DNA of 64,000 nucleotides from an uncultured Porphyromonas sp. (lineage in GTDB: Bacteria > Bacteroidota > Bacteroidia > Bacteroidales > Porphyromonadaceae): the NCBI RefSeq assembly GCF_900538385.1, contig NZ_UWSO01000004.1; one strand, written 5' to 3'. Position 1 is the stretch's first letter. Each line of letters begins with the position of its first letter. Positions 6,787-63,169 of the stretch are shown here, in pieces. The notes below the pieces were generated by a model, which saw nothing but the letters and a program-made list of their open reading frames with translations, did not search any database and had not been told where the DNA came from. A program made the translations under genes and the position numbers.

Positions 6787-6980
6787 AATCTCCACCGAAG
6801 AAATCGCCAATTCTTCGGTGGAGATTTTTTATTTCCCACGGAGGAAAGAAAAAACTCTTCGGATATATCGTTTGATTCTTCCGAAGTTTCATTTGATTCT
6901 TCCGAAGAATTGTTTGATTCTTCCGAAGAAATAGAGCTTTTCCTCGGAGCTATTCGGAGGTTTCTTCCGAAGAAATCGAG
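6787..6980 (+). repeat. dispersed intergenic repeat, family A copy 1 (terminator-like hairpin plus a structured core with tandem 'tttgattcttccgaag' units)
   Basis: Hairpin 'atctccaccgaagaaatcgccaattcttcggtggagat' plus a T-run, then the core 'ggaggaaagaaaaaactcttcggatatatcgtttgattcttccgaagtttcatttgattcttccgaagaattgtttgattcttccgaag...gagctattcgg'. Close copies sit at 13775, 27671 and 53222. Confidence 0.75.
6788..6831 (+). terminator. rho-independent terminator (hairpin and T6) downstream of ORF 6112..6738; also the 5' module of the family A repeat
   Basis: The perfect inverted repeat atctccaccgaagaa / ttcttcggtggagat is followed by 'tttttt'. Confidence 0.5.
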
Positions 6981-8672: not shown

Positions 8673-10130
8673 ATGAAAAGACTCACATCAATCCTCCTGC
8701 TTCTCATAGCAGGACTCTTCACCTTCACGAGCTGTGATGAAGACAACCCCATCACGGGTGGTGACACGCCAAAATGGCCTGAGAAGATCTCACAGTGGAT
8801 GCTCCCCATCGAGCGCTACGGCATCTCCATCGACGAGGTGGCTCAGATCGAAGAGGGGCGTGGTAACAAGGTCGAGCGCTCAGAAGAGCTGATGACCCTG
8901 ACCGCTACACCTCAAGACACCAAGGCGGTACGAGAGATCGTCTACTACTTTGACCGGGCTGGGCTCTATCAGGTTGCTCGCGTACAGTTTGCTTCGCAAG
9001 AGACCGCCAAGCAGTTCATCGACGAGTATCTGCTCAACAACGGCTTCGTCAAGAGCAACCTCCGCACCGCCAAGGCTACGGAAGAGATCTACGTTAGCGC
9101 GCCACGTGGTAGCCGTGTCTCCTCAGTCGTCCTCGTAGACGGTGACAAGACCGAGCCTATCTTCTGGTGGGGTAGCAACGACAACAAAAAGACCAATTGG
9201 CTACGTGTCGATCCTCTTCAGGACCAGACTACCGGTATCTGGATGCCCCTCCTACCTTACGGAGCTACCCTTGAGATGGTTCAGCTCTTTGAGGCTCGCA
9301 TGGGACACACTTTCGATGCTGAGGCGAGCAAGCCTGACAAGGGTGTCTTAAAGTTCAAGACTGGTCATGAGGTTTACACAGAAGTAACCTATTGGCTAGA
9401 CCTCAAGACCAACCACTTCCTTGAGGAGAGCAAGGTCTCTTGCGACACGCTCCATCGTCCTACCCCTGAACAGGTCGATGCTTACCTTACGGCACAAGGC
9501 TTTAAACCTTCAGGTCTACAAGACAAGAATGGCAACTCTCTTTACTACGACAAATCTCTCAAGCTAGTCGCTCACATCGATATGAACATCCCTAATGAGG
9601 CTGAAAAAAAAGCGACCTTCCGTCCTGGGATTCAGTACTATGTTGAGGATCTTGACGACAAAATACCTTATGAAGAGGTAGACTTCCCGATGCCACTTTT
9701 TGGCTTTAATAGGGACACGTTAGAGACTGTCATGAAGGAGTACGCCAACCTAGACTATACGGCTGCTGTCGTTGACATGCTAGCTGAAGAGATGCCTTTC
9801 CCAGCAGTACAGACACGTTGCAAGTACTTCCCGACGATAATCTTGCTTCCTTCTGATACCGAGCCACTTTATGGAGCTGCTCTCATTATCTGTACAGACC
9901 TCAAAGCACTACACTCGCCGATGATTATTGATCGCCTAGAGCGCAGAGGCTTCGTGTATGATCCTAAGAGGACCATACTCCTACCTACTTATGTCAACGA
10001 GCAGGAAGGTGTGATGGTTCAGATAGATGATGGCTCCGTAACTGGTATTACAAATATCAGCTTCAGCCCTATCGAGGACTTCACCAGCTCAGCGACTCCA
10101 ATAGCACAACGTTTGAAGCGTTTGCGCTAG
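8673..10130 (+). CDS. hypothetical lipoprotein
   Basis: Signal 'LLLLIAGLFTFTSC'. No recognisable motif. A C6 tract lies immediately 5' of the ATG and an in-frame A8 tract at 9604..9611. Confidence 0.5.
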   Translation: MKRLTSILLLLIAGLFTFTSCDEDNPITGGDTPKWPEKISQWMLPIERYGISIDEVAQIEEGRGNKVERSEELMTLTATPQDTKAVREIVYYFDRAGLYQVARVQFASQETAKQFIDEYLLNNGFVKSNLRTAKATEEIYVSAPRGSRVSSVVLVDGDKTEPIFWWGSNDNKKTNWLRVDPLQDQTTGIWMPLLPYGATLEMVQLFEARMGHTFDAEASKPDKGVLKFKTGHEVYTEVTYWLDLKTNHFLEESKVSCDTLHRPTPEQVDAYLTAQGFKPSGLQDKNGNSLYYDKSLKLVAHIDMNIPNEAEKKATFRPGIQYYVEDLDDKIPYEEVDFPMPLFGFNRDTLETVMKEYANLDYTAAVVDMLAEEMPFPAVQTRCKYFPTIILLPSDTEPLYGAALIICTDLKALHSPMIIDRLERRGFVYDPKRTILLPTYVNEQEGVMVQIDDGSVTGITNISFSPIEDFTSSATPIAQRLKRLR

Positions 10131-27670: not shown

Positions 27671-27860
27671 TCTCCACCGAGGAAATCCGAATTTCTTCGG
27701 TGGAGTTTTTTCCTTCCCCAGTGAAGAACGAAAAAATTCTTCGGACTTATCATTTCATTCTTCCGAAGTTTCATTTGATTCCTCCGAAGAATTTTTCATT
27801 TCTTCCGTGGAGAATTTTCATTTTCCAGCGAACTATTTGGTGTTTTCTTCGGACGCACTG
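27671..27860 (+). repeat. family A repeat copy 3
   Basis: Hairpin 'ctccaccgaggaaatccgaatttcttcggtggag' plus T6, then 'gaagaacgaaaaaattcttcggacttatcatttcattcttccgaagtttcatttgattcctccgaagaattttt...gaactatttgg'. No co-directional gene lies upstream, so the hairpin belongs to the element rather than serving as a gene's terminator. Confidence 0.75.
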
Positions 27861-29916: not shown

Positions 29917-29934
29917 CGTGTAACAACTTGACGT

Positions 29935-30073
29935 GTAACCCGCTGTAGGGACGCACGGTCTGTGCGTCCGTTGTATCAAAGGTTACAGCATCAAGATTGT
30001 TATCCGTTTTGGCTGGTTCGACAACGGACGCCATCCCACTAGACACGAGCCGAGAGTCCCTACAGCGGGTTAC
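29935..30073. repeat. family B palindromic MITE-like element copy 1
   Basis: Terminal inverted repeats gtaacccgctgtaggga / tccctacagcgggttac flank the internal palindromes gacgcacggtctgtgcgtc and tccgttg...caacgga. Copies lie at 52929, 55166 and 63311. Confidence 0.75.
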
Positions 30074-49890: not shown

Positions 49891-52821
49891 ATGCAGAACA
49901 AAGGATTTGTGATCCTCTTCGCCTCTCTACTGACGATCATCTGCGCTTTCTACATCTCCTTTACCCCAGTGGTAAGGCACTACGATCAGAAGGCGCTGGC
50001 GATGACCGCAGCTGGCGAGGATGGCAAAGCGTATCTCGACTCAATGGCCAACGAGAAGGTGTGGTTTGGCTACACGCTCAAGAAAGCCCGCAACCAGCAG
50101 ATAGGTCTCGGACTAGACCTCAAGGGCGGTATGAACGTCGTCCTCAAGGTCAATGGACGTGATCTCCTGCGCAACCTCTCAGGACATAACCAGTCGCCAG
50201 CCTTCATCGAGGCTATCGATAGGGCTGCCAAGGAAGGCGCCAATGACTTCGTCGGGACTTTCGTAAAGGCTTACAAAGAGCTCGAGCCCTCAGGCTCGCT
50301 CGCGGTAATCTTTAGCAATGGTCCCCTCCGTGATGTCATCTCGCCTAAGTCTAGCGACCAGGAGGTTATCAAGGTGCTTCAGGAGAAGTACAGCAGTGCT
50401 ATCGACGCTGCTATCAACGTCCTCAAGACTCGTATCGACCGCTTTGGTGTCGTCGCTCCAAACGTACAGCGCATCGAGGGCCAGGGACGTATCCTCGTCG
50501 AGCTACCAGGTGTCACCGAGCCTCAGCGTGTTCGTGAGCTACTGCAGCGCAGTGCTAACCTACAGTTCTGGCGCACCTACACCTATGATGAGATTGCTAG
50601 CGACCTCGTCGACGCTAATAATCGTCTCACCGCTATGGCAAACGGCAACGACCTGACGCCTGCCGATACGGCTACTACGGCAGCTGACTCGACCGCTACG
50701 GTGGCTGACTCTACAGCAGTACAGACGCCAGCTTCCACAGGTGTAGAGAATGTCCTCTTTAGCAAGCTCAACGTCACCAATCGTGGTACCATCGTCGGCT
50801 ACGCTCGTCGTGCAGATCTAGACAAGATCGATGAAATGCTCGAGGAGGCTCAGAAGCAAAAGATGATCCGTGAGGATCTGATGCTCCTCTGGAGCAACTC
50901 GCCTATCAAAGATCCACAGTCTGGCAAGGAGACAGACATCTACGAGCTTTACGCTATCCGTGGTAACCGCAATGCACTCCCCGATCTAGGTGGTGAGGTG
51001 GTCACCTCGGCACGTAGTGAGGTGCGCAACGACCTAGGTCAGAACCGTCCCGTCGTCACCATGACGATGAATGATGAGGGTGCTCGTAAGTGGGCTCGCC
51101 TGACCGGTGACAACATCGGTCGAAACATCGCTATCGTCCTCGATGGTGTCGTCTACTCAGCACCTAATGTCAATAACGAGATCACGGGCGGACGCTCTGA
51201 GATCTCGGGTCACTTCACCGTCGATGAGACGACCGACCTTGCTAACGTCCTCAACTCTGGACGTATGGAGGCTTCTGTCGAGATCGAGCAGGAGAGTGTC
51301 GTCGGACCAACGCTTGGTAGTGAGTCCATCAAGGCTGGTATCATCTCCTTTATCATTGCGATCATCCTGCTGATGATCTACATGTGCCTCGCTTACGGCC
51401 TCATCCCAGGTCTTATTGCCGATGGTGCTCTGATCCTCAACAGCTTCTTCACCCTCGGTGTCCTTGCCTCTTTCCACAGTGTCTTGACGCTGTCCGGTAT
51501 TGCGGGACTTGTGCTGACGCTCGGTATGGCGGTGGATGCTAACATTCTGATCTTCGAGCGTATCAAGGAAGAGCTACGTGCTGGCAAGTCTATGACGCGT
51601 GCTATACAAGACGGTTACGGCAATGCCTTCTCAGCAATCTTTGACTCCAACCTCACGACCGTCATCACGGGTGGTGTGCTCTATGCCTTTGGTACAGGTC
51701 CTATCCGTGGCTTCGCTACGACGCTCATCATCGGTGTCATCGCTTCCTTTATCACGGCAGTCTTCTTGACACGTATCGTCGTTGAGGCGCTTGATAAGAA
51801 GGGACGTATGGACAAGGTTACCTATACAACTTTCCTCACACGCAACCTGCTAAACAACCCCACCTACAAGATCCTGGAGAACCGCAACAAGGGCTTCATC
51901 ATCTTTGGCTCTATCCTCGTGCTCGGTCTCATTGGCTCGTTCGTATGGGGTCTCAATAGAGGTATCGAGTTCTCAGGCGGTCGCAACTATATCGTTGCCT
52001 TTGAGCAGCCTGTCTCTTCGGCTGAGGTACGTGAGGCTCTGACGAAGCCCCTAGAGGAGCATGTCCTCGTCACCTCTATCGGTACGGAGGGCAATCAGGT
52101 TCGTATCTCGACCAACTATGGTATCGGTATGACTCAGGAGAGCGAAGACGAGGAGCTACTCGTCATCGGTAAGGTCTTCGAGGGCGTACAGAAGTTCCTA
52201 CCACAGGGCACGACCCAGCAGCAGTTTGTCGACAACTATGTCGTCAGCTCACAGCGTGTCAGCCCAAGTATGTCTAAGGATATCTCTCGTCAGGCTATCA
52301 TAGCGGTGCTCCTCTCCCTGATCTTCATGGGACTGTACATCTTGCTTCGCTTCCGCAACTGGGCCTTCTCGCTAGGAGCTTTTGCCTCTGTGGCTACCAC
52401 CACGCTACTCATTGTGTCTAGCTACATACTGCTCTGGCAGATCATGCCCTTCACGATGGAGCTCGATCAAAACTTCATCGCAGCGCTGCTAGCGATCATC
52501 GGATACTCGATCAACGATGTGGTCGTCGTCTTCGACCGTGTCCGTGAGACGCTACACAACTATCCCAACCGTGAGGAGAAGCTTGTGATGAACGATGCGC
52601 TCAATAGCACGCTAGCTCGTACCGTACAGACGACCTTCTCGACCTTCCTAGTGGTCTTCATCATCTTCCTACTCGGTGGAGCCTCTATGCGTAGCTTTAC
52701 CTTTGCGCTACTCATCGGTATCGTTTACGGTATCTTCTGTACGCTCTTTGTCGCATCGCCTATTGCCTACCTAGTACGCAATAAGCAGCAACAGAGGAAG
52801 CTCGCAGCAGCTAAGAAGTAA
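49891..52821 (+). CDS. secDF: protein translocase subunit SecDF (fused)
   Basis: 976 aa with two 6-TM blocks, a periplasmic P1 domain, and the fusion arrangement typical of Bacteroidetes. Confidence 0.9.
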   Translation: MQNKGFVILFASLLTIICAFYISFTPVVRHYDQKALAMTAAGEDGKAYLDSMANEKVWFGYTLKKARNQQIGLGLDLKGGMNVVLKVNGRDLLRNLSGHNQSPAFIEAIDRAAKEGANDFVGTFVKAYKELEPSGSLAVIFSNGPLRDVISPKSSDQEVIKVLQEKYSSAIDAAINVLKTRIDRFGVVAPNVQRIEGQGRILVELPGVTEPQRVRELLQRSANLQFWRTYTYDEIASDLVDANNRLTAMANGNDLTPADTATTAADSTATVADSTAVQTPASTGVENVLFSKLNVTNRGTIVGYARRADLDKIDEMLEEAQKQKMIREDLMLLWSNSPIKDPQSGKETDIYELYAIRGNRNALPDLGGEVVTSARSEVRNDLGQNRPVVTMTMNDEGARKWARLTGDNIGRNIAIVLDGVVYSAPNVNNEITGGRSEISGHFTVDETTDLANVLNSGRMEASVEIEQESVVGPTLGSESIKAGIISFIIAIILLMIYMCLAYGLIPGLIADGALILNSFFTLGVLASFHSVLTLSGIAGLVLTLGMAVDANILIFERIKEELRAGKSMTRAIQDGYGNAFSAIFDSNLTTVITGGVLYAFGTGPIRGFATTLIIGVIASFITAVFLTRIVVEALDKKGRMDKVTYTTFLTRNLLNNPTYKILENRNKGFIIFGSILVLGLIGSFVWGLNRGIEFSGGRNYIVAFEQPVSSAEVREALTKPLEEHVLVTSIGTEGNQVRISTNYGIGMTQESEDEELLVIGKVFEGVQKFLPQGTTQQQFVDNYVVSSQRVSPSMSKDISRQAIIAVLLSLIFMGLYILLRFRNWAFSLGAFASVATTTLLIVSSYILLWQIMPFTMELDQNFIAALLAIIGYSINDVVVVFDRVRETLHNYPNREEKLVMNDALNSTLARTVQTTFSTFLVVFIIFLLGGASMRSFTFALLIGIVYGIFCTLFVASPIAYLVRNKQQQRKLAAAKK

Positions 52822-52856
52822 GCTTTCCCCTACTCGCTCTCCAGTTAGAGCGGTAG

Positions 52857-52908
52857 TAAAAAAATCGGAGCCTATCCACCATCGTGTGGGTAGGCTCCGA
52901 TTTTTTTA
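52857..52908. terminator. strong rho-independent terminator after secDF (A-tract, hairpin, T-tract; potentially bidirectional)
   Basis: 'gtaaaaaaatcggagcctatccacc atcgtg tgggtaggctccgatttttttac'. Confidence 0.7.
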
Positions 52909-52928
52909 CGCCGCCGACCGCACCGACC

Positions 52929-53150
52929 GTGAAACCCGCTGTGCGGACGCACGGGGCGTGTAAACCTCATCGACCAACCCACGTCGCCTTGTAGGGACGC
53001 TCGGTCTGAGCGTCCGTTGTATCAAAGCGAGACGTGTAACGATTTGTAGGGACGCTCGGTCTGAGCGTCCGTTGTGTCAAATGTTACAGCGTCATGGTTT
53101 TAACGGAAACGGACGCACAGACCGTGCGTCCCTACAGGAGTCGTTTCCGT
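52929..53150. repeat. family B palindromic element copy 2 (contains a tandem internal duplication)
   Basis: 'gtagggacgctcggtctgagcgtccgttgt' occurs twice in tandem. It closes with 'acggacgcacagaccgtgcgtccctacagg', the reverse complement of the family B TIR. Confidence 0.7.
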
Positions 53151-53221
53151 GGTTCCGCACACCAGACTACAGGTTTCACCACTCGTCGTCCCGACGACTT
53201 CCCGATTCCTCTGGAACTATT

Positions 53222-53410
53222 TTGGGATTTCTTCCGTGGATATTTTTTATTTCCCAGGGAGGAAAGGAAAAATTCTTCGGACTTATCGTTTGATTCTTCC
53301 GAAGTATCATTTGATTCTTCCGAGGAAATTTTTCTTGCCCTCGTGGAAAATCAAAAATATCCCCATGGAGAATCGAAAATATCCACCGAGGCATCCCGAA
53401 GACCCTCGTG
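53222..53410 (+). repeat. family A repeat copy 4
   Basis: 'gatttcttccgtggatattttttatttcccagggaggaaaggaaaaattcttcggacttatcgtttgattcttccgaagtatcatttgattcttccgagg...'. Artefactual ORFs 53072..53522 lie inside it. Confidence 0.75.
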
Positions 53411-53514
53411 CGTTACGGACTTGCTAGCTGTTGAGAGACTATGTGTAGAGGCTGTTTTTGATCAAAATTCCATCGGGCGAAATGTTAACGATCGATTTTG
53501 TCAAAAAGAAAACC

Positions 53515-53561
53515 GATTTTGACAAACGGGGGGGGGGGATTTTACATACCTTTGCATCAAA
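53515..53561 (+). promoter_or_regulatory. Bacteroidetes-type promoter (-33 TTTG, G11 spacer, -7 TACCTTTG) of the Mfa-like pilus operon
   Basis: 'cgaTTTGacaaacG11attttacaTACCTTTGcatc'. The -7 box is 46 nt upstream of the ATG at 53600. Confidence 0.45.
53528..53538. repeat. homopolymeric G11 tract inside the promoter spacer of the type V pilus operon
   Basis: 'caaac ggggggggggg attttacatacctttg'. It lies between a TTTG at 53518 and the -7 box at 53547. Confidence 0.9.
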
Positions 53562-53599
53562 GATTCAACAGCTTTATAAACAATCAAACCAATTCAACT

Positions 53600-55135
53600 A
53601 TGAAAAAGTTTCTTTATGCAACGTTGGCTCTCGCCGCAGTTCTGCTCTTCGCAAGCTGCAAGAACGACAAGAACCAACCCAATGATCAGGAGAAGGCTGA
53701 TGCTTTCATCTCCTTTACTTTCAACCTACCACAAGGTGGTACAAGAGCTGAGGCTGGCAATGTCGCTGGTGCAAACGCTGGCGATACTTTCGTTGGTACT
53801 GCTGATGAGCAGGCTATCAAGGAGGTCCGCGTCGTACTTTACGATCCAAATGAAGGCATAGTTAAGTACGCCCTTACTTACAACATCACAGCAACAGGTG
53901 GTCAGGCACCTACAGGAGATGGTCTTGCTGACGCCCCAGCTAGCGCAGCTACAGCAGCTAACTTTACCACAAAAGCTGAGCAGGTCGTAAGTCAAGACTA
54001 TCAGATGCTTGCTATCATCAATCCAACATCTGATGTCATCGCAGCTACCGCAGAGGGTAAGTACCTCAAGGATGCTCAGGCTGCTCTTGAGTCAACCGTC
54101 AAAGATCTATCTGCAGATGGTAAGGCTATCCTGATGTCTAACGATCGTGGCCTCGTTAAGGTTGCACCTGCTGATATGAAGGCTGCTGCAGCTGATGCCG
54201 AGGGTCATCCGATCAAGGTAAATGTAGATCGTATCCTCGCCAAGGTATACGTGGGTGGTACACCAGATCTTCCTGCTGGTGTTACATTCTCCGACACCAA
54301 GTGGGAGCTCAATACGACCAACAAGAAGACCTTTATCTATCGTCAGTTTGCCCAGGTTACGACTGGCTTAGATCAGTTTGCCCCTGAGACGGTAGATAAC
54401 AATACTGATCGCTTCGCTCGCTACGCTAAGGATCCTAACTACCTAGCTGGTGAATTTAACGAGGCAGACTTCAACTACAAGAAGGATGTCGACGTTCTCG
54501 CTAACGAGTGGGGCTTTGAAGACACTAAGGGTCAGTACTGCCTTGAGAACACGATGGATGCTGGTCAGCAGCTAAACAACCAGACTACTTCATTTATCCT
54601 GAGCGGTACCTGGAAGCCTGCAGACCATGACGGCATTTCCTTTACAAAGGGTCAGACTTGGTACAGCTATATGGGCTTTACCTTTACTGTGGCAAAGATG
54701 AAAGAGTACATCGGTATCGTAACTGATGCATCAAAAGCTGCCGAGAAAGAGATTGTTGGCACGCCAGCAGGCTTCAAGGCTGCTCTTAAGACTCTTGTAG
54801 AGGATGCTAACAGCCCAGTTGACAAGACTGAGGGAACCATCACTAAGTCTTTTGTCGCTCACAACTTCAAGGGCTATAAGGATGGTGTTTGCTACTACCA
54901 GACGAACTTAATCCGTCACTTCAACGATACTCAGTCTAGCAAGGATATGGGTTACGGTCGCTACGGTGTAGTTCGTAACAACATCTACAAGGTTACGATC
55001 AAGAAGATCTCACAACCAGGTGAGCCTACAATTGTTCCTGAAAAGCCTAATCCAGATGATCCAACGAAGCTATTCGTAGCCTTCGATATTACGATCAATC
55101 CTTGGATTGTTCGTACACAGGAGATTTCTCTATAA
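53600..55135 (+). CDS. type V pilus major subunit (Mfa1/FimA-family fimbrillin lipoprotein)
   Basis: Lipoprotein signal 'LLFASC'. 'ISFTFNLPQGGTR-AEAG' parallels the FimA/Mfa1 N-terminal strand and Arg maturation site. The C-terminus 'ITINPWIVRTQEISL' resembles the donor-strand region of type V pilins. 511 aa is Mfa1-like. Confidence 0.65.
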   Translation: MKKFLYATLALAAVLLFASCKNDKNQPNDQEKADAFISFTFNLPQGGTRAEAGNVAGANAGDTFVGTADEQAIKEVRVVLYDPNEGIVKYALTYNITATGGQAPTGDGLADAPASAATAANFTTKAEQVVSQDYQMLAIINPTSDVIAATAEGKYLKDAQAALESTVKDLSADGKAILMSNDRGLVKVAPADMKAAAADAEGHPIKVNVDRILAKVYVGGTPDLPAGVTFSDTKWELNTTNKKTFIYRQFAQVTTGLDQFAPETVDNNTDRFARYAKDPNYLAGEFNEADFNYKKDVDVLANEWGFEDTKGQYCLENTMDAGQQLNNQTTSFILSGTWKPADHDGISFTKGQTWYSYMGFTFTVAKMKEYIGIVTDASKAAEKEIVGTPAGFKAALKTLVEDANSPVDKTEGTITKSFVAHNFKGYKDGVCYYQTNLIRHFNDTQSSKDMGYGRYGVVRNNIYKVTIKKISQPGEPTIVPEKPNPDDPTKLFVAFDITINPWIVRTQEISL

Positions 55136-55165
55136 TCCCTGAGTACACTTTGCTTGTCGATTAGC

Positions 55166-55333
55166 GAGACGTGTAACCCGCTGTAGGGACGTACGAGACG
55201 TGTAACGATTTGTAGGGACGCTCGGTCTGAGCGTCCGTTGCATCAAAGGTTACAGCGTCAAGGATTTAACGAGAACGGACGCACAGACCGTGCGTCCCTA
55301 CAAAGGGTTACACGTTTGAGCGGGTTACACGTC
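55166..55333. repeat. family B palindromic element copy 3
   Basis: The outer TIR gacgtgtaacccgct / agcgggttacacgtc is perfect. The internal 'gtagggacgctcggtctgagcgtccgttg' and 'acggacgcacagaccgtgcgtccctaca' match the family. Confidence 0.75.
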
Positions 55334-55414
55334 ATCGACAGCAATACTATCCTATGAGGGGTTGAATGTTCCCCTCATAGGAACTATTCACACAAAAGAG
55401 GTCTAAGACTCACG

Positions 55415-56416
55415 TTGACTATGGTACCACATACGCTATCTCGATCGAGACTATTATATATAGGAGTCATGCTCCTGCTGAGCTGGAGCTTCGTCTCTTG
55501 TGACAAGTGCATCTATGAGGATCTGTCCACCTGCCCGCTCCGTGTGCAGCTACGCTACGACTACAATATGCAGTACGTAGATCGCTGGCATCGCGAGGCA
55601 GAGGATGTGCATCTCTACATCTTCGACAAGACAGGGCACCTGGTCTCGGAGATGACTGATGCGGCTGCACCCTATGCTGAGGGGCAGACCTTCGAGCTAC
55701 AGCTCGCCCCGGGCGACTACTCCATCGTAGCGCTCTGCGGCCACCGTATGGGTACCCTCTATCAGGAGAGCAAGCTACAGGTCGGCACCTCGACCATGCA
55801 GGATCTGCTCATACAACTCTCGAGAGCTGAGGACAAGCGGATCGCCGCTGAGCTGCCACCACTACTCTATGGTATCTCCAAGGAGGTCCAGGTGCTGGGC
55901 GATGGCAGCCGGCTCATCGTCGTGCCGATGGCTAAGTGGACCAACAGTATACGCCTCGTCATGCAGGATCTCTCTGAGGGTGGCAAGTCTAACATTAAGG
56001 TCGACAACTACGACTTTAAGATTACCGCTCCCAACGGTCGCTACAACGGCGCTGGCGAAGTACTCACCGACGACGTACTCACCTACACCCCGTACTATGC
56101 TGAGCAGGTCAAGGGGTCGGGCGGTATCGCTGTCGAGCTCAACACCCTCCGCCTACTGACCAACCAGGATCAGCGACTTATCATCACCGAGCGCGCTACG
56201 GGCGATGAGCTCCTCAACATAGATCTGCTGTCGCTACTGCTGCAGACGAAGTTCTACGCGAACAACAAGCTCTCCGATCAGGAGTACCTCGACCGTGAGG
56301 ATCACTACGCCGTCATCTTCGCTTTCGATGGTCGCCCCGTGACGCGAGAGACTTTCCTAGCGGTGAACGTATGGATCAATGGCTGGCTCATCCGTGAGCA
56401 AGACCATAATATATAA
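55415..56416 (+). CDS. type V pilus anchor-like subunit (Mfa2/FimB-family lipoprotein)
   Basis: 333 aa with lipoprotein signal 'LLSWSFVSC' and a pilin-like C-terminal strand 'VNVWINGWLIREQ'. Its position is second in the operon. Confidence 0.55.
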   Translation: MTMVPHTLSRSRLLYIGVMLLLSWSFVSCDKCIYEDLSTCPLRVQLRYDYNMQYVDRWHREAEDVHLYIFDKTGHLVSEMTDAAAPYAEGQTFELQLAPGDYSIVALCGHRMGTLYQESKLQVGTSTMQDLLIQLSRAEDKRIAAELPPLLYGISKEVQVLGDGSRLIVVPMAKWTNSIRLVMQDLSEGGKSNIKVDNYDFKITAPNGRYNGAGEVLTDDVLTYTPYYAEQVKGSGGIAVELNTLRLLTNQDQRLIITERATGDELLNIDLLSLLLQTKFYANNKLSDQEYLDREDHYAVIFAFDGRPVTRETFLAVNVWINGWLIREQDHNI

Positions 56417-56444: not shown

Positions 56445-57758
56445 ATGACGAAATGCAATCTATATAGCATACAAGGAGGCTCCCGCACGATCCTTGCGTG
56501 GCTGCTCTCCGCGGTGCTCCTGCTGACGGGGCTAACTAGCTGCGTCAAGGAGGATCCATCCGCCTGTCCGCCTGGTCAGGGGGACTTCTACCTCTCGATG
56601 AGCGTGGCGCCGCAGTCGACCTTCCGTCAGGGGGAGGTGCCTCTGTCTGAGCTACAGGAGAAGCTCAAAAATGCAGAGAATAAGGTCAAGTCTGTACGTG
56701 TCCTCGTCTTCGACCACAATACGGGCGAGTGTCTAGTCAACCAAGTCTTAGGAGGCTATACACAGCCTAAGGACAATGTCACTCCTTGGAGTCACCCAGT
56801 GATGATCCCGAAAGGGATCCAAAGCTTTGACTTCTACTTCGTCGCCAATGAGGCTTCCAAAACCTACAACCTGACGACAGCCCTGCAGGGTGTCACCGAA
56901 CGGGGGCAGCTCTACTCGCTCTCTGGGTTGACGCAGATCCCCTGGCAACCGGAGTTTCTCCCCAGCTTAGCGGATGGTGGTAGCGGTGAGGACGACCTCA
57001 TCCCGATGACCGCCATCTGTCCCAACGTCAGCATCGATGCCATCAAGCAGATGCTCGGAAAGGGCACCGAGCCAGACCCATACCGCTTCCTAGCCACACC
57101 GACGGAGCGACATCCCGTGCGTCTGACGCGTGTCCTGGCGCGTATCGACATCACGATGCCCGACATGATTGCCAACAGCGTGCTGGGCGACCCCACCTCG
57201 GATCAGGTGCTTGTGCTGGACTATATAGAGGACTTTCAGATGGCTCTATATAATGTACCTCGTTACTTCGCTCTCTTCGCCTCTCGCTACTACGACGAGA
57301 ACCAGTGGACCACAACGCTCTACAATCCTATCAACTCCAACTACTACCGGGCTCCTCAGGACGGGCAGGACTGCTACTATATAGAGCGGGACAAGAACAA
57401 GGTGCGTCGCAATATGATTAGCACTGAAAGCGCCGGTCAAGCTATCGGTGAGCTCAGGACATCCGACTACTACACGACGCTCTACGTACCGGAGTTTATC
57501 CGCCAGACGAGTGCCGATGCGGGGCTAACGCCCGACCAATTGGCAGCGATGCAGCTCAGGCTCACCTTCCAGGTCAATGATTGGGACCCCAAGCACCGCA
57601 ATGGCTATCAAGTAACCAGGCACCCGCTCGTCGACAAGTTTGACGACCGCAACACGGAAGAAACTGGTCAGCTTGCAGCACAGAATGCGGGCGTGAGCAC
57701 CTACTCCGTCATCCGCAATACTTGGTACCAGATCAAGATCACGCAGGTAGACTTCTAG
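56445..57758 (+). CDS. type V pilus accessory subunit (Mfa3-like lipoprotein)
   Basis: 437 aa from the ATG at 56445. Lipoprotein signal 'LLLTGLTSC' and C-terminal 'NTWYQIKITQVDF'. Confidence 0.5.
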   Translation: MTKCNLYSIQGGSRTILAWLLSAVLLLTGLTSCVKEDPSACPPGQGDFYLSMSVAPQSTFRQGEVPLSELQEKLKNAENKVKSVRVLVFDHNTGECLVNQVLGGYTQPKDNVTPWSHPVMIPKGIQSFDFYFVANEASKTYNLTTALQGVTERGQLYSLSGLTQIPWQPEFLPSLADGGSGEDDLIPMTAICPNVSIDAIKQMLGKGTEPDPYRFLATPTERHPVRLTRVLARIDITMPDMIANSVLGDPTSDQVLVLDYIEDFQMALYNVPRYFALFASRYYDENQWTTTLYNPINSNYYRAPQDGQDCYYIERDKNKVRRNMISTESAGQAIGELRTSDYYTTLYVPEFIRQTSADAGLTPDQLAAMQLRLTFQVNDWDPKHRNGYQVTRHPLVDKFDDRNTEETGQLAAQNAGVSTYSVIRNTWYQIKITQVDF

Positions 57759-57817: not shown

Positions 57818-60800
57818 ATGAAACGATATAGATACATCACCCTCTCCCTCCTTCTCCTCCTTCTGTCGATCTCTGCGCTCTCCGCGCAGAAGACATCCCA
57901 ACAAGGCTCAGATAAGGATGGGAACTTCCATTTTGAAGTGACGACGACCCCCTCTTATTGTCAGAATGAGGGTACGATGGAGGTTAAGCTACTTACACCA
58001 TTTTGGGGAGCTCCGCTAGCTCTCTCTCAGATAGAGAGGGTGGAGTACGAGGTCAAGGATGGGGAAGGTCATAGTTACACTCAGGGTTACAAGCCAGCGC
58101 CAGCTCCTACAGAGGCACTTCTGATCGAGCAACTACCAGGGCGCGAGGACTACAGTATCTCTATTAGACTGATAGCTAAAGAAGGAATAGGCAAGTCTGA
58201 CGTTGAGACCTTCCTCCGCTGGAATGCAAAGGTTGAGAACAAGTATGTAGCGCTGGAGGTGACCCAGGAGAAGTTTGATGCCTATAGGTTGCCTTGTAGA
58301 CCGTACGGTAGCTTTCATATCGTAGCGCGAGGGGGTACGGAGAGACCTCCCGTCTTGAATATTAAGACCCCCAGTGCTCTTACGGCTAAGAAGATGCAAC
58401 CCACTAAGCGGGAGGTCAAGGGTGACACAACCCTCTACCACTTTGAGTATAGCGGGGCACTACCACAAGGCACTTACGAATATACTTTAGAGAGTGACTG
58501 TCGAGAGACTACTGCCAAGTCGTTCACCGTATATGGTCCTACGACCAATCTGCCTACGGTGCCATCGGATCTCAAGATCCCCTTCGGCATCGACATCATG
58601 AGTGGTGAGGGTTGCGCTAGTAGCATCAGTGCGTTTGGAGCCAGCTTCGATAAGGATAAGCCAGAGCTACGTGAGCTCTTTAAGGAGATCAATAAGGGCT
58701 ACCAAGGAGATGCGGAGAGACTTTTTCCTGAGTATGCAGACTCTTTCCCCTCTACCTTTATCAAAAACTACGAGGTAGCTGTCGTCACTCAGCAAGAGTA
58801 TGCAAAGCTCCAGCAGGGTACGCTAGACGCCAGCACGCTCCTCTGGAGTAGTCAAACGGGATCTCTCACGAAGGTCGACGCCAATGACTCGGAGAGTGGT
58901 GGTGTCAGCATCTCTTATAGACTGCCTCAGTCGATGTCTCTACAAGAGCTTCGTACGCAGCAGGCACTCCCAGCTGCCGTGCTGATACGTGTCAAGAGAC
59001 CCAACGAAGGGTGCAACGACTATATCACCATACCCATTACTGTGGACTTGGACTTTCACAAGAATCGCTTTGAGATCCTTGAGACAGAAGACGCCTCTGA
59101 CTGCTCCATAGGTCAGATTATATGGTTCCAAGGGTGGAACTTCTGTACGCTACGCTTTAAGTACTACGAGCTACCAGACGGTTCTGACAAGCCCGACCCA
59201 TCGGCTACGCCTATCCACACTTCAGATGATTTTGGTCCAGCAGTCTCTACTTCGATAGACAAGCGATACACTTTTGAGGGATATGACCCGACGAAGCGCT
59301 ACTACGTCGAGATAGAGGGCACGGATCTCTATGGCAATCCCATCATACCCAAGCCTAGCCTCATCCTAGCCCCCACAAACAAAAAGCCTATAAAGAATCG
59401 TCTCTACGACTTCTCTAGCATCTACGCCCACCTGCCTCAGCCGATGCTGGATAGAATAAAGCTTGGTAGTCTTACCGCTTATTTAAGTCCAGGTTATCAC
59501 ACTTATCTTTTTTCCTTTTACGGGAAGTCTCTCAATGCTATGGCTGGCATGGAAATCACGCTTGTCGAGGCTCCCGAAGGGTATGAAGAGTATCGCCGTA
59601 CGTGTGAGAGCTACTACTTCAATACGCCCAATCCTACGGATGCTGAAAATCCTTATGGTGGTGGTATGATAGGGCTGGGAGAGAAGATCAAAATGTCCAA
59701 CACCTTTACAGGTCCTGGGGGGACTGGCACCCCTGAATACTTTTTCCCATTTAGGTTTATCTATAAGGTAGGCAAAAACGGAGAGCGCATAGTCTATCCT
59801 TACAAAGACAACTATTCTAAACCCTCTCCGCTTAAAGACATTCTTACTAAGGATCCAGAGAAGGATGCTTATTTGGAGAAGCATCCTATGCCTCGTGGCA
59901 TCTACCGTCTCAAGTTTGAGCATCCTTGTCAGCCGGGAGAGTCCTTCTATATAGATCTAGATATGAGTGAGCCAGACTTCAAGCCCGAGCTTACGGAACT
60001 CATTAAGCCGGTGGTGGATCGAACCTCTTGTGATGAGGTGCGTGTCTACCCCTTTGCTGATGGTCGCCTAGACTATGCTATAAATAAGGAGGGTAAGCCT
60101 CGCAATATTATCTTTTATGTTACGCTTGCTGGAGGTCAAAAGAAGTGGCTCTACTTTTACCCCAAGGATCGTGATGGCAATCCGATAGATCATACTAAGT
60201 TCTATATTCCTGTCAAAAGTGTAGATCTCCCGCTCACACTGAATCTTCGCTACGTCTATCCAAAGCCTCGCTGGCAGTGGATAAAGTGGGATAAGCCGAC
60301 GTCTACTTCAGTCAACCCCATTGGGGTCAATCAGTTTGTCAAGGGAGAGCTGGAGGGAGGAAATGTAGGTGATGGATATTACAAATTACCTCTTGATGGG
60401 TACAATCCAAACAATGACCAAGACGATTGGGGTGAGGATGGCTTTTCGTGGTCTTCTTGGTCTGCAGAGTCGTTTGTCCCTTGGATTTCAGTTGATGTGC
60501 CTATAGATACAAAAGATCTGCCCCCCTCGTACGCACGTCCTACTTACGTAGGGTATCGCTGCTCCAAGGAGATGGGCTATATGGAGTTTAAGCTGATCAA
60601 TATCCCGAACAAGGTCGGTACCGTGGTACTCAAAGATGGAGATAAGGTCATCATGAGCTCAAAGATTGAGGAGTTGCCCGAAGACCTGATGGTTCGCTGG
60701 GATCTTACTGCCGAGTTGGGTAGTGAACTCAAGAATGAGTACAGGCTGGAGATTATAACCAGTCTATGTGGTGAAGCAAATATGCAGACGGAGAAGTTTA

Positions 60801-63169
60801 CCGTCAAGCTCGAGAACCTCTCTGAGGGTATTTCGGTGACCGTCTCTCCGCAGGGAGCTCACTGCCCTGGCGATGTGGTGACCCTGACGGCGACAAATCT
60901 AGGTGTGCCGGATGGTGCGTACAAGTGGACCTTTGACAATGGAGACACTGACTTTGGACGTACTATCCGTCGCAAGGTGTCCGCTCCCCGTGTAGTCAAC
61001 GGTAAGGCGCAGTATAACACCTACACGCTAACCGTCACAGGGACTAAGTGTGGTACTGCTACGAGTAAGGGTGTCATCCCCGTCTCGCCAGACGAACTCT
61101 GGTGGATGCCTCGTCCAACCTCCGCAGAAGGACACGGCACGCTACCTGAAGGACCAATTGGAGCGAACGAAACATACAATGCGCTCGTAGTGCCACAACA
61201 GGGAAATGATCCCACAGATCCTAGCGACAAGAGAGCTGGTTCAGAGCACTACGACTGGAATAACCCCGATAACTGGTCATTCCTCTATAATGGCGAGTTT
61301 TATCCAGCGAATGCTGTGCCAAGTAGCTGCACCAATGTGCATATAGTGAATATGGCGTACTTCAAGCTAGAGAATGAATTTGGTCAGCCGATTTGTCCAC
61401 AGCCAGACCTCGATAAGACGGTTACCTTTCGTGACTTGTACGGAGAGCCGACCTGTATTGATATCACTTTCCACTCGGGAGGGTTTATCTATAACCTCTC
61501 CCAGCTCAACTATCGACGGGCTATGATACGCTACAACTTTGGCGTTGCGAAGGGTACAGAGTACGAGAGTGACAAGCATATTTATACTTTAAAATCCTTC
61601 GATACCGATGAGTGGCTTCATGGGCGTAAAGAGCTTAATCTAATAGCGGCTCCGCTCTACGATATCTACGCTGGAGATTACAGCTTCAGTGCCTCTCCCT
61701 ACACCTATCAGCTTGGCTTACGAGTCTTGCCTGGTATCGAGGCGAATGATGTGTATGATATGGCTGAGTTTGACGCTAGTGCTTTCAACGACCCCTCACC
61801 ACTACAGTCTATCTCGATGGCGAGCAATAATAATAGTATCGCTCTGATCGTGGCTCCCGATGATAAGGGCTTCAACCGCAAGGGTAGCTCAGTCCCTATC
61901 ATCAAGCAGCGCCATGGTATCTTGGAGCTACCATACTTCGACAGACCAGATATAGCCCAGTCCTTCTACCATCAGACATACGATGCGAGCAAGGGGCAGA
62001 GTCGCTTCCAATATTTCGACGGCAAGGCTCAGCGCTTCCGTGGTTACTACTCGTATGCTCAGCGTAGCAAGATGGCTTACCGCTTTATCTTTGAGAACCC
62101 CACGACGCAGCGTATTCCTAAGCTCGCCAATGGTACCGAGAGTTACACGATGGAGGTCAATGCGACCGCTGCTGGTCAGGAAGTGATGGTGGGCAATCCA
62201 TTTATGACACCGCTACAGATAGCTCCTTTCCTAGATGCTAATAAAGAAGTTATAGAACCCTATGTGAGATTCTTGAGCCGTGTTGAGGTGAAAGGCTATG
62301 ATCCTCTGAAGCTAGATGGGTCTATCTTGACCTACCACCGAGCTACAGCAGAGAATAAGACGATTAATCAGCTCGAAGCATTTGTGGTCAAGCTTAAGGA
62401 GGGTGTCGGTTCTGGTGCGAAGTTGATCTTCCCAACAACCGCTCTCGACTCATATGCGAAACAACATACTCAGAGCGGTAGCCTAAGTAGTGAGAGTGGG
62501 GACGCTGGCGAAGAGGCTGCACGCTACCTATCGCTGACGCTACAGAGTCGTCTCGGCAAGGATCGTGCGCTGGTCACCTATGGCTACGAGTCTGGCTCGG
62601 TCAATAAGCTTCTGATGAGTGCGGAGAGTCGCTACCCCTCGATTGCGATTATCGATCCCGCAGGTGGTCCCTATAAGGATCTCTATGCCGATGATGTAGC
62701 TACGGGTCACTACCAGCTAGCCACACGGGTCTCCGAACCGATCGATGTGACGCTCTCGCTCGTTGGTAGTGTGATGGGTCATGTCGTGACGGCTCGTCTA
62801 ATAGACCACAAGAGCGGCCTGGAGCATGACCTGACGGGTGGTAAGAGTTGCCAGATCAAGCTCTTCCCCGATGATGCCGAGGGTCGTCTCGAGCTACGCG
62901 TGGACGGCGACTTTACGTCGGTCGCTCCGATGGCTGCGCCTACAGCCGAGCTGCAGGCGCAGTACAGCGAGGGTATGCTGACTGTCCGCACGACACAGGA
63001 GATGTCGTCCCTACGGCTTGTACAGGGAGACGGTATCACGGTCTACACGCAGTCGCTACCAGGGCTGACGGAGTACAGCGAGCGTATCCTCCTCTCGTCA
63101 GGCAGCTACGTCGTCGAGGCGATCGGCACGGACGGTGTCGCACGTCGTGCGGTGCTCGTCGTGAAGTAG
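57818..63169 (+). CDS. giant (1783 aa) secreted protein with a T9SS C-terminal domain; by position a candidate Mfa5-like pilus tip/accessory protein
   Basis: Signal 'LLLLLLSISALSAQ' from the ATG at 57818. The C-terminus 'LSSGSYVVEAIGTDGVARRAVLVVK' matches the T9SS CTD. No vWA MIDAS motif could be confirmed by eye. Confidence 0.6.
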   Translation: MKRYRYITLSLLLLLLSISALSAQKTSQQGSDKDGNFHFEVTTTPSYCQNEGTMEVKLLTPFWGAPLALSQIERVEYEVKDGEGHSYTQGYKPAPAPTEALLIEQLPGREDYSISIRLIAKEGIGKSDVETFLRWNAKVENKYVALEVTQEKFDAYRLPCRPYGSFHIVARGGTERPPVLNIKTPSALTAKKMQPTKREVKGDTTLYHFEYSGALPQGTYEYTLESDCRETTAKSFTVYGPTTNLPTVPSDLKIPFGIDIMSGEGCASSISAFGASFDKDKPELRELFKEINKGYQGDAERLFPEYADSFPSTFIKNYEVAVVTQQEYAKLQQGTLDASTLLWSSQTGSLTKVDANDSESGGVSISYRLPQSMSLQELRTQQALPAAVLIRVKRPNEGCNDYITIPITVDLDFHKNRFEILETEDASDCSIGQIIWFQGWNFCTLRFKYYELPDGSDKPDPSATPIHTSDDFGPAVSTSIDKRYTFEGYDPTKRYYVEIEGTDLYGNPIIPKPSLILAPTNKKPIKNRLYDFSSIYAHLPQPMLDRIKLGSLTAYLSPGYHTYLFSFYGKSLNAMAGMEITLVEAPEGYEEYRRTCESYYFNTPNPTDAENPYGGGMIGLGEKIKMSNTFTGPGGTGTPEYFFPFRFIYKVGKNGERIVYPYKDNYSKPSPLKDILTKDPEKDAYLEKHPMPRGIYRLKFEHPCQPGESFYIDLDMSEPDFKPELTELIKPVVDRTSCDEVRVYPFADGRLDYAINKEGKPRNIIFYVTLAGGQKKWLYFYPKDRDGNPIDHTKFYIPVKSVDLPLTLNLRYVYPKPRWQWIKWDKPTSTSVNPIGVNQFVKGELEGGNVGDGYYKLPLDGYNPNNDQDDWGEDGFSWSSWSAESFVPWISVDVPIDTKDLPPSYARPTYVGYRCSKEMGYMEFKLINIPNKVGTVVLKDGDKVIMSSKIEELPEDLMVRWDLTAELGSELKNEYRLEIITSLCGEANMQTEKFTVKLENLSEGISVTVSPQGAHCPGDVVTLTATNLGVPDGAYKWTFDNGDTDFGRTIRRKVSAPRVVNGKAQYNTYTLTVTGTKCGTATSKGVIPVSPDELWWMPRPTSAEGHGTLPEGPIGANETYNALVVPQQGNDPTDPSDKRAGSEHYDWNNPDNWSFLYNGEFYPANAVPSSCTNVHIVNMAYFKLENEFGQPICPQPDLDKTVTFRDLYGEPTCIDITFHSGGFIYNLSQLNYRRAMIRYNFGVAKGTEYESDKHIYTLKSFDTDEWLHGRKELNLIAAPLYDIYAGDYSFSASPYTYQLGLRVLPGIEANDVYDMAEFDASAFNDPSPLQSISMASNNNSIALIVAPDDKGFNRKGSSVPIIKQRHGILELPYFDRPDIAQSFYHQTYDASKGQSRFQYFDGKAQRFRGYYSYAQRSKMAYRFIFENPTTQRIPKLANGTESYTMEVNATAAGQEVMVGNPFMTPLQIAPFLDANKEVIEPYVRFLSRVEVKGYDPLKLDGSILTYHRATAENKTINQLEAFVVKLKEGVGSGAKLIFPTTALDSYAKQHTQSGSLSSESGDAGEEAARYLSLTLQSRLGKDRALVTYGYESGSVNKLLMSAESRYPSIAIIDPAGGPYKDLYADDVATGHYQLATRVSEPIDVTLSLVGSVMGHVVTARLIDHKSGLEHDLTGGKSCQIKLFPDDAEGRLELRVDGDFTSVAPMAAPTAELQAQYSEGMLTVRTTQEMSSLRLVQGDGITVYTQSLPGLTEYSERILLSSGSYVVEAIGTDGVARRAVLVVK

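Follow-up and report, generated by a model that had tools for sequence, protein, structure and literature searches.

The promoter of the type V pilus operon mfa from an uncultured gut Porphyromonas contains a run of 11 G residues whose length differs between strains that are otherwise nearly identical around it. We propose, with a probability of roughly 0.5, that gut Porphyromonas of the asaccharolytica/uenonis clade switch or dim their type V pilus by slipped-strand changes of this poly-G spacer, and not by DNA inversion, each change re-phasing a putative repeat-bound regulator relative to the -7 box. All coordinates refer to the window, the whole stretch of 64,000 nucleotides that was analysed.

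The genes downstream of the tract form a type V (Mfa1-type) pilus operon, in which the lipoprotein Mfa1 is followed by the Mfa2 anchor and by accessory pilins. The pilus operon announced in the preliminary description is thus borne out by family matches, its pilin start codon being moved from 53601 to 53600. Mfa1 (511 aa) begins with the lipoprotein signal MKKFLYATLALAAVLLFASC and scores 295 bits against NCBIfam NF038041 (Mfa1 family fimbria major subunit; cut-off 130), while Mfa2 scores 191 bits against PF08842. The mfa3-like product matches Fimbrillin_C, P_gingi_FimA and the Mfa1 family only weakly. No Pfam or NCBIfam domain above threshold was recognised in the large ORF that closes the operon, and only its position prompts the guess that it encodes a tip or accessory protein of an unusual kind. 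The operon and the element preceding it are organized as follows:

52856..52909, no strand assigned: hairpin with A/T tails, 3' of secDF (inverted repeat with 24-nt arms, 96% complementary)
53600..55135, + strand: mfa1, Mfa1-family type V pilus major subunit, lipoprotein precursor (NF038041, PF15495)
55469..56416, + strand: mfa2, pilus anchor/terminator (PF08842; start as called in public contigs)
56445..57758, + strand: mfa3-like accessory pilin (start ambiguous, alternative at 56379; weak family matches)
57818..63169, + strand: 1783-aa ORF at the distal end of the operon, co-linear with it in all contigs

The gene upstream of the mfa promoter is secDF (49891-52821), and the hairpin that follows it is probably a bidirectional terminator insulating the promoter. 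The remaining large ORFs of the window (35 of the 39 of at least 150 aa were scanned) are housekeeping genes and genes for LRR/T9SS surface proteins; no recombinase, tyrosine recombinases included, and no obvious regulator domain was found among those 35. SecDF, Mfa1 (WP_297113209.1) and chorismate synthase are identical to RefSeq entries from "uncultured Porphyromonas sp.", their 90% clusters include P. asaccharolytica and P. uenonis proteins, and the homologues of Mfa1 come from Porphyromonas without exception. The host is placed among the uncultured gut Porphyromonas of the P. asaccharolytica/uenonis clade.

Mfa1 is extremely polymorphic. Its alleles at this one locus are 57-98% identical (homologues P0001-P0120) and vary most in the central part; the signal peptide, the amino- and carboxyl-terminal strands and the 5'UTR are conserved despite this polymorphism. 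The pattern suggests antigenic diversification. A strongly diversifying surface pilin is typical cargo of contingency loci, which counts for the reading of the tract as a switch.

The G11 homopolymer lies inside the mfa1 promoter, in the sequence gtcaaaaagaaaaCCGATTTTGACAAac-G11-attttacaTACCTTTGcatca (53500-53560). It is, as previously claimed, the longest homopolymer of the window, the next ones being an A8 at 9604-9611, T7 and A7, and no other run of G or C exceeds 6 nt in the 64 kb. Runs of 11 or more arose in 3 of 400 first-order Markov simulations of the window. Mononucleotide tracts were regarded as slip-prone from roughly 8-9 uninterrupted nucleotides upwards, a range that includes G11. 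The end of the tract is 8 nt away from the -7 box TACCTTTG, which fits the Bacteroidota consensus TAnnTTTG perfectly and is found 53 nt from the mfa1 ATG. Because of the position of this box, transcription is predicted to start a few nucleotides past it, about 40 nt before the ATG. On the other side of the tract, a TTTG within cgaTTTTGacaa is separated from the TA of the box by 25 nt (53522-53546), 11 of them G, an interval first given in the preliminary description and reproduced here with its coordinates. The TTTG is part of the second of two direct repeats, whose position weight matrix matches nowhere else in the window. The promoter elements are, in order:

53492..53504, + strand: distal direct-repeat copy TCGATTTTGTCAA, putative regulator-binding half-site (repeat search; conserved in orthologs 56 nt from the -7 box)
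53513..53525, + strand: proximal direct-repeat copy CCGATTTTGACAA, which includes the TTTG at 53518-53521 (repeat search; orthologs)
53528..53538, + strand: G11, the probable hypermutable spacer (nine alleles in 24 assemblies)
53547..53554, + strand: -7 box TACCTTTG (TA(C/A)CTTTG invariant in orthologs, 53-58 nt before the ATG)
53558..53599, + strand: predicted 5'UTR (from the position of the -7 box; 3' half conserved in orthologs)

Eight orthologous mfa1 promoters without a tract, representing seven distinct sequences, were compared with this arrangement. They come from P. uenonis DSM 23387 (L042), from uncultured Porphyromonas species representatives (L039, L040, L043, L044), from metagenomic P. 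uenonis-like contigs (L026, L028) and from the secDF-mfa1 locus of contig L025. Three blocks are conserved: the pair of direct repeats, the -7 box TA(C/A)CTTTG and the 3' part of the 5'UTR. The repeats have the consensus (A)TACCGAAAATGTCAA, with copies of 13 nt spaced by 21 bp from start to start, and the unit CCGAnnnTGnCAA is conserved in these tract-less promoters. All eight have the same two distances to the TA of the -7 box: exactly 35 nt for the CCGA of the proximal repeat and 56 nt for that of the distal one. Two CCGAnnnTGnCAA repeats at such exact distances from the box are a candidate regulatory element. The 22-nt spacer between the proximal repeat and the box is not conserved in sequence and is invariant in length. 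A distance that stays fixed while the sequence spanning it varies argues that the distance is functionally constrained. The G tract fills most of this same spacer in the window, where the proximal repeat is 34 nt from the TA, one nucleotide below the distance in the orthologs. The other tract alleles bring this distance to 33, 34, 35 or 36 nt, and a gap-free alignment with the orthologs is obtained for G12 and CC-G10-T only.

The tract-less promoters show variation of their own. The P. uenonis-like contigs L028 (1366-1430) and L026 encode an identical Mfa1 protein and differ in the copy number of the 21-bp unit CCGAAAATGTCAAACAAAATA in the promoter, three in L028 and two in L026, a second way in which repeat number varies in an mfa1 promoter. 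Contig L025 has the tract-less type of promoter segment (~1184-1578, the counterpart of window 53360-53572) in place of the tract-bearing one at this secDF-mfa1 locus, with flanks 89-94% identical to the window and an Mfa1 96% identical, from which it follows that promoter type and pilin allele recombine independently. In L042 (P. uenonis DSM 23387; 2566-2620, 2800-2850) a G8 run adjoins a (TTAGAGA)n array; a (TCTCTAA)n array in the opposite orientation lies just upstream of the mfa1 promoter repeats. Arrays of the TCTCTAA type also precede other tract-less mfa1 promoters.

The length of the tract was compared in public contigs whose Mfa1, SecDF or Mfa2 is identical to that of the window, or whose Mfa1 is a close allele. 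Further contigs were obtained by a pattern scan of JGI metagenomes, which gave only 3 additional loci, and from the amino-terminal extensions of mis-annotated proteins that translate the tract; a scan of GTDB genomes gave no genome with this exact promoter type. After removal of duplicate contigs, 24 assemblies have a promoter of this type. The segment delimited by GACAAA and ATTTTAC takes nine forms, uninterrupted from G10 to G13 or interrupted at the tract ends from G8 to G10, their lengths being read from Illumina metagenome assemblies of low coverage (~6-7x for some contigs), in which the call of a long G run can be in error by +/-1. The forms, with the resulting distance from the proximal repeat to the -7 box, are:

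C-G10: 8 assemblies (L002, L003, L004, L006, L021-L023, L055), 33 nt
C-G11: 2 assemblies (the window, L001), 34 nt
C-G12: 2 assemblies (L032, L033), 35 nt
C-G13: 2 assemblies (L058, L059), 36 nt
CC-G8-T: 6 assemblies (L015-L020), 33 nt
CT-G8-T: 1 assembly (L024), 33 nt
CC-G9-T: 1 assembly (L036), 34 nt
CC-G10-T: 1 assembly (L034), 35 nt
C-G10-T: 1 assembly (L035), 34 nt

Sequencing runs behind the alleles include SRR1215278 for G11, SRR1215918 for G10, SRR14017347 for G12, SRR2583982 for G13 and ERR14760549 for CC-G8-T. The commonest spacing is 33 nt (15 of the 24 assemblies). An identical length in all strains was named at the outset as the outcome that would speak against phase variation; the G run spans G8 to G13 in these 24 assemblies. 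The 184 nt of non-coding flank (124 upstream and 60 downstream of the tract) contain three SNPs only. Since the alleles vary while the flanks are nearly invariant, the tract behaves as a genuine mutational hotspot. Two tract lengths are found on each of three haplotypes with identical flanks (G10/G11, CC-G8-T/CC-G10-T and G10/G13). Within the lineage of identical Mfa1, represented by six samples, contigs match the window fully, or fully except for the tract indel, over 7,536-8,932 nt, the G10/G11 indel thus being the sole difference between near-clonal contigs in up to 8.9 kb; L004 has one further difference besides the tract over 5,052 nt. Judged from these comparisons, the tract is very probably hypermutable in the biological sense.

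Calls agree within lineages for CC-G8-T (6 of 6), for G10 in the P0004 allele (3 of 3), for G12 (2 of 2) and for G13 (2 of 2), and this reproducibility argues against pure sequencing noise. The only interrupted-G8 allele sampled several times, CC-G8-T, has no length difference among its six assemblies, and the only length difference within a lineage of identical Mfa1 protein is G10/G11, in an uninterrupted tract of 10 or more. Change in the long uninterrupted tract and stability of the interrupted G8 are as expected from slippage. Note that contig L057 starts directly 3' of the tract, a break that is only suggestive of length change within a population.

The proposed mechanism treats the G tract as a slippage-prone simple-sequence repeat within the mfa1 core promoter, between the direct repeats and the -7 box. 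The box would be read by the primary sigma factor of Bacteroidota, and the direct repeats most likely bind a transcription factor that substitutes for the missing -33 element. They would cover about -68 to -35, provided that transcription starts a few nucleotides past the -7 box. Gain or loss of one G at replication would move the repeats by 1 bp relative to the box, that is by ~34 degrees of helical phase, altering the alignment of the factor with RNA polymerase and raising or lowering transcription of mfa1, mfa2, mfa3 and the large ORF. The effect would be heritable and reversible, either an ON/OFF switch or a dimmer. In the lineage with the tract, a slippery G run would have replaced an ordinary spacer. 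From the promoter sequences we consider it somewhat probable that the tract modulates mfa transcription through the distance between the repeats and the -7 box. Binding of a factor, a start downstream of the tract, an effect of length on transcription and the identity of the ON length are features that we only infer.

The spacing in the orthologs would predict an ON state near 35 nt, with the window one nucleotide short of it. One lineage is effectively locked at 33 nt by the interruptions of its tract, and its mfa1 is intact. Since 33 nt is also the commonest spacing, it either does not mean OFF or is compensated by expression from a second promoter. A strict ON/OFF switch is accordingly less favoured than a graded (dimmer) effect or a second promoter. 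Two considerations count against the proposal: the known mfa regulators of P. gingivalis include repressors, for which spacing would matter less, and the presence of a single such tract in 64 kb gives no sign of a genome-wide contingency-locus strategy.

The main competitor of this proposal is that the tract is a neutral mutational hotspot, a slipping and lineage-specific filler in a promoter that tolerates 33-36 nt, with little or no regulatory effect. We hold it to be a serious rival, though an unlikely one. Neutrality would fit the occurrence of all four length classes in strains that keep an intact mfa operon and are apparently successful, the fixation of interrupted G8 alleles at 33 nt in at least 6 samples, the finding of only one long tract in 64 kb and the existence, at this locus and within the clade, of a tract-less promoter (L025). 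It does not account for the strict 35 nt kept by eight orthologous promoters whose spacer sequence varies freely, nor for the total length being held to 11-14 nt in both end-sequence backgrounds, and a G11 run is unlikely from composition alone (the 3 in 400 simulations given above). It is highly improbable that the tract is real and its length differences technical, produced by slippage in library PCR or clustering or by the calling of a consensus from few reads. Illumina instruments are prone to errors in long G runs, the coverage of some contigs is low, and the break of L057 falls exactly at the tract. Lengths are nevertheless repeated within lineages across different runs and projects, they cover as much as 3 nt where the end sequences are the same, above the usual +/-1, and the substitutions at the tract ends are not slippage errors.

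Two other rivals assign the tract a different function. In the preliminary description the promoter is read as a standard sigma-A promoter of Bacteroidota, in which the tract would set how far a -33 TTTG (53518) stands from the -7 box. TTTG-N19-21-TAnnTTTG is the established consensus of Bacteroides and Flavobacterium promoters, and both TTTG and TACCTTTG are present here, 25 nt apart. The -7 box is indeed at a suitable distance from the ATG, but a -33 TTTG at 19-21 nt is absent. The TTTG belongs to the proximal direct repeat, its position being occupied by AATG in the orthologs, or AAGG in L025, and the observed alleles place it 24-27 nt from the TA, never approaching 19-21. Moreover, of the ~10 TAnnTTTG boxes upstream of genes in the window, only that of secDF has a TTTG at 19-21 nt, so that a -33 box is no general feature of promoters here. 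This geometry is very unlikely to be the one that matters. The preliminary interpretation is supported in part, for the gene, the kind of mechanism and the expected length polymorphism, but not for its -33 box. A translational switch, in which the tract would be part of an N-terminally extended mfa1 frame from the ATG at 53473 and frameshifting would control pilin synthesis, is hardly tenable. That ATG is in frame when the segment has 11 or 14 nt, for example with G10 or G13, and gene callers annotate extended products of 543-558 aa in public data. Against this, the tract precedes the -7 box; the lipoprotein signal peptide, which must be amino-terminal, begins at Met 53600 in every allele; and tract-less orthologs have equally stop-free upstream extensions. 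The extended Mfa1 proteins were consequently set aside as an annotation artefact.

Several other candidates were rejected. An invertible promoter is contradicted by the lack of long inverted repeats bracketing 53490-53560, by the lack of a recombinase in the ORFs scanned and by the single orientation of the promoter in all contigs. A structured RNA or riboswitch was discarded, since against Rfam the region 52700-55500 matched only hairpins of miRNA models, all below threshold. An E. coli-type sigma-70 promoter could be drawn from TTGACA (53519-53524) and TACATA 17-18 nt away; this pair is not called by the promoter scan, neither hexamer is conserved in the orthologs and the grammar of Bacteroidota sigma-A differs. 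A 142-aa ORF (53094-53522) that ends just 5' of the tract was treated as spurious, since it matches no family, overlaps with dispersed repeats and goes uncalled in several strains.

The dispersed repeats form two families of palindrome-rich, REP- or MITE-like intergenic sequences, exemplified by TGTAGGGACGCTCGGTCTGAGCGTCCGTT and its complement. One family is found at 52989-53136, 55194-55302 and 29931-29972, the other at 53229-53400 with copies at 6811-6909 and 27691-27797. They occupy the secDF-mfa1 and mfa1-mfa2 gaps and other intergenic regions. Public contigs break or change partner inside them: L003 joins the window at 53268, L005 leaves it at 53144, and L008-L014 end at 53079-53305. In L003 genes of the FimD/FimE type precede mfa1, and in L005 a different LRR/T9SS gene follows secDF; these junctions reflect either real recombination between repeat copies or switching in the assembly graph. 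A recombination switch deduced from such breaks and junctions between secDF and mfa1 was rejected since the breaks map to the REP-like repeats, 200-500 nt upstream of the promoter, and not to the tract. Other differences between strains were seen nearby. A minor indel, C3 versus C4, is found at window ~53420-53424 (gaaga-ccctcg), ~105 nt upstream of the G tract. The P. uenonis-like contigs L026, L027 and L029-L031 have an IS110-family transposase ~340 nt upstream of mfa1 (positions 124-1161), in place of which L028 has a topoisomerase gene.

The slippage mechanism proposed here is a textbook one; the phylum, the pilus type and the architecture of -7 box and direct repeats are new for it. In the literature searched, phase variation of Bacteroidales is described only as inversion of promoters or genes. 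Against that literature the mfa1 promoter, if the proposal is true, would be the first contingency promoter based on a simple-sequence repeat to be documented in Bacteroidota, and also the first to drive type V pili. The contingency-locus strategy of Neisseria, Haemophilus and Bordetella would then extend to Bacteroidota. The gut and vaginal Porphyromonas clade is linked to disease and the genus is associated with colorectal cancer. Tract length could, if the proposal is true, serve as a marker of the pilus ON/OFF state that is readable from metagenomes, or, the pilin being hypervariable and surface-exposed, as a proxy of adhesin expression in metagenomic cohorts.

A literature search for phase variation by poly-G or other simple-sequence repeats in Porphyromonas, Bacteroidales or type V pili, incomplete in its coverage, found no example. 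Phase variation in Bacteroidales is described as inversion-based (reviewed in PMC11868660). The Mfa1 fimbriae of Phocaeicola vulgatus phase-vary by an invertible promoter, with Tsr tyrosine recombinases and flanking inverted repeats (PMC12940148). They belong to the same Mfa1-type family of type V pili of gut Bacteroidales, and their heritable, reversible heterogeneity is the outcome proposed here; however, neither the inverted repeats nor the recombinase was found in the promoter region and the 35 of 39 ORFs scanned, respectively. The mfa1 of P. gingivalis, which heads an orthologous type of operon, has a proximal transcription start 44 bp upstream of the ATG, as quoted in PMC1974823, and a distal promoter at -434 that is bound by FimR (PMC1974823). 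CrpPg binds to the P. gingivalis mfa promoter and CdhR is cited as well, both among repressors (PMC12040651). The start at -44 fits the one predicted here ~40 nt before the ATG, whereas homopolymer-based variation is not reported for P. gingivalis mfa1 in the literature found.

Repeats in promoter spacers, whose length sets promoter strength in a graded or ON/OFF manner, are known from porA and opc of Neisseria meningitidis and from hifA/hifB of Haemophilus influenzae. As in the mfa1 promoter, the simple-sequence repeat is found in the core promoter of a gene for a surface protein or pilus, but those tracts separate recognised -35 and -10 hexamers while here the upstream partner is a pair of direct repeats and no -33 element is conserved. 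This class of promoters is reviewed in general in PMC11868660. Fim2 and fim3 of Bordetella pertussis are regarded as the closest functional analogue. Their poly(C) separates the site of BvgA~P from that of RNA polymerase; changes of a single C alter the alignment and abolish or restore fimbriae and several lengths are found in one culture (PMC10172299). Both systems have a G:C homopolymer of ~10-15 bp in the promoter of a major fimbrial subunit, placed between an upstream regulator site, putative in the case of mfa1, and the element equivalent to -10. They differ in phylum, in pilus (chaperone-usher for fim2/fim3 and type V here), in sigma factor and in the TAnnTTTG grammar of the -7 box, and they have no sequence homology.
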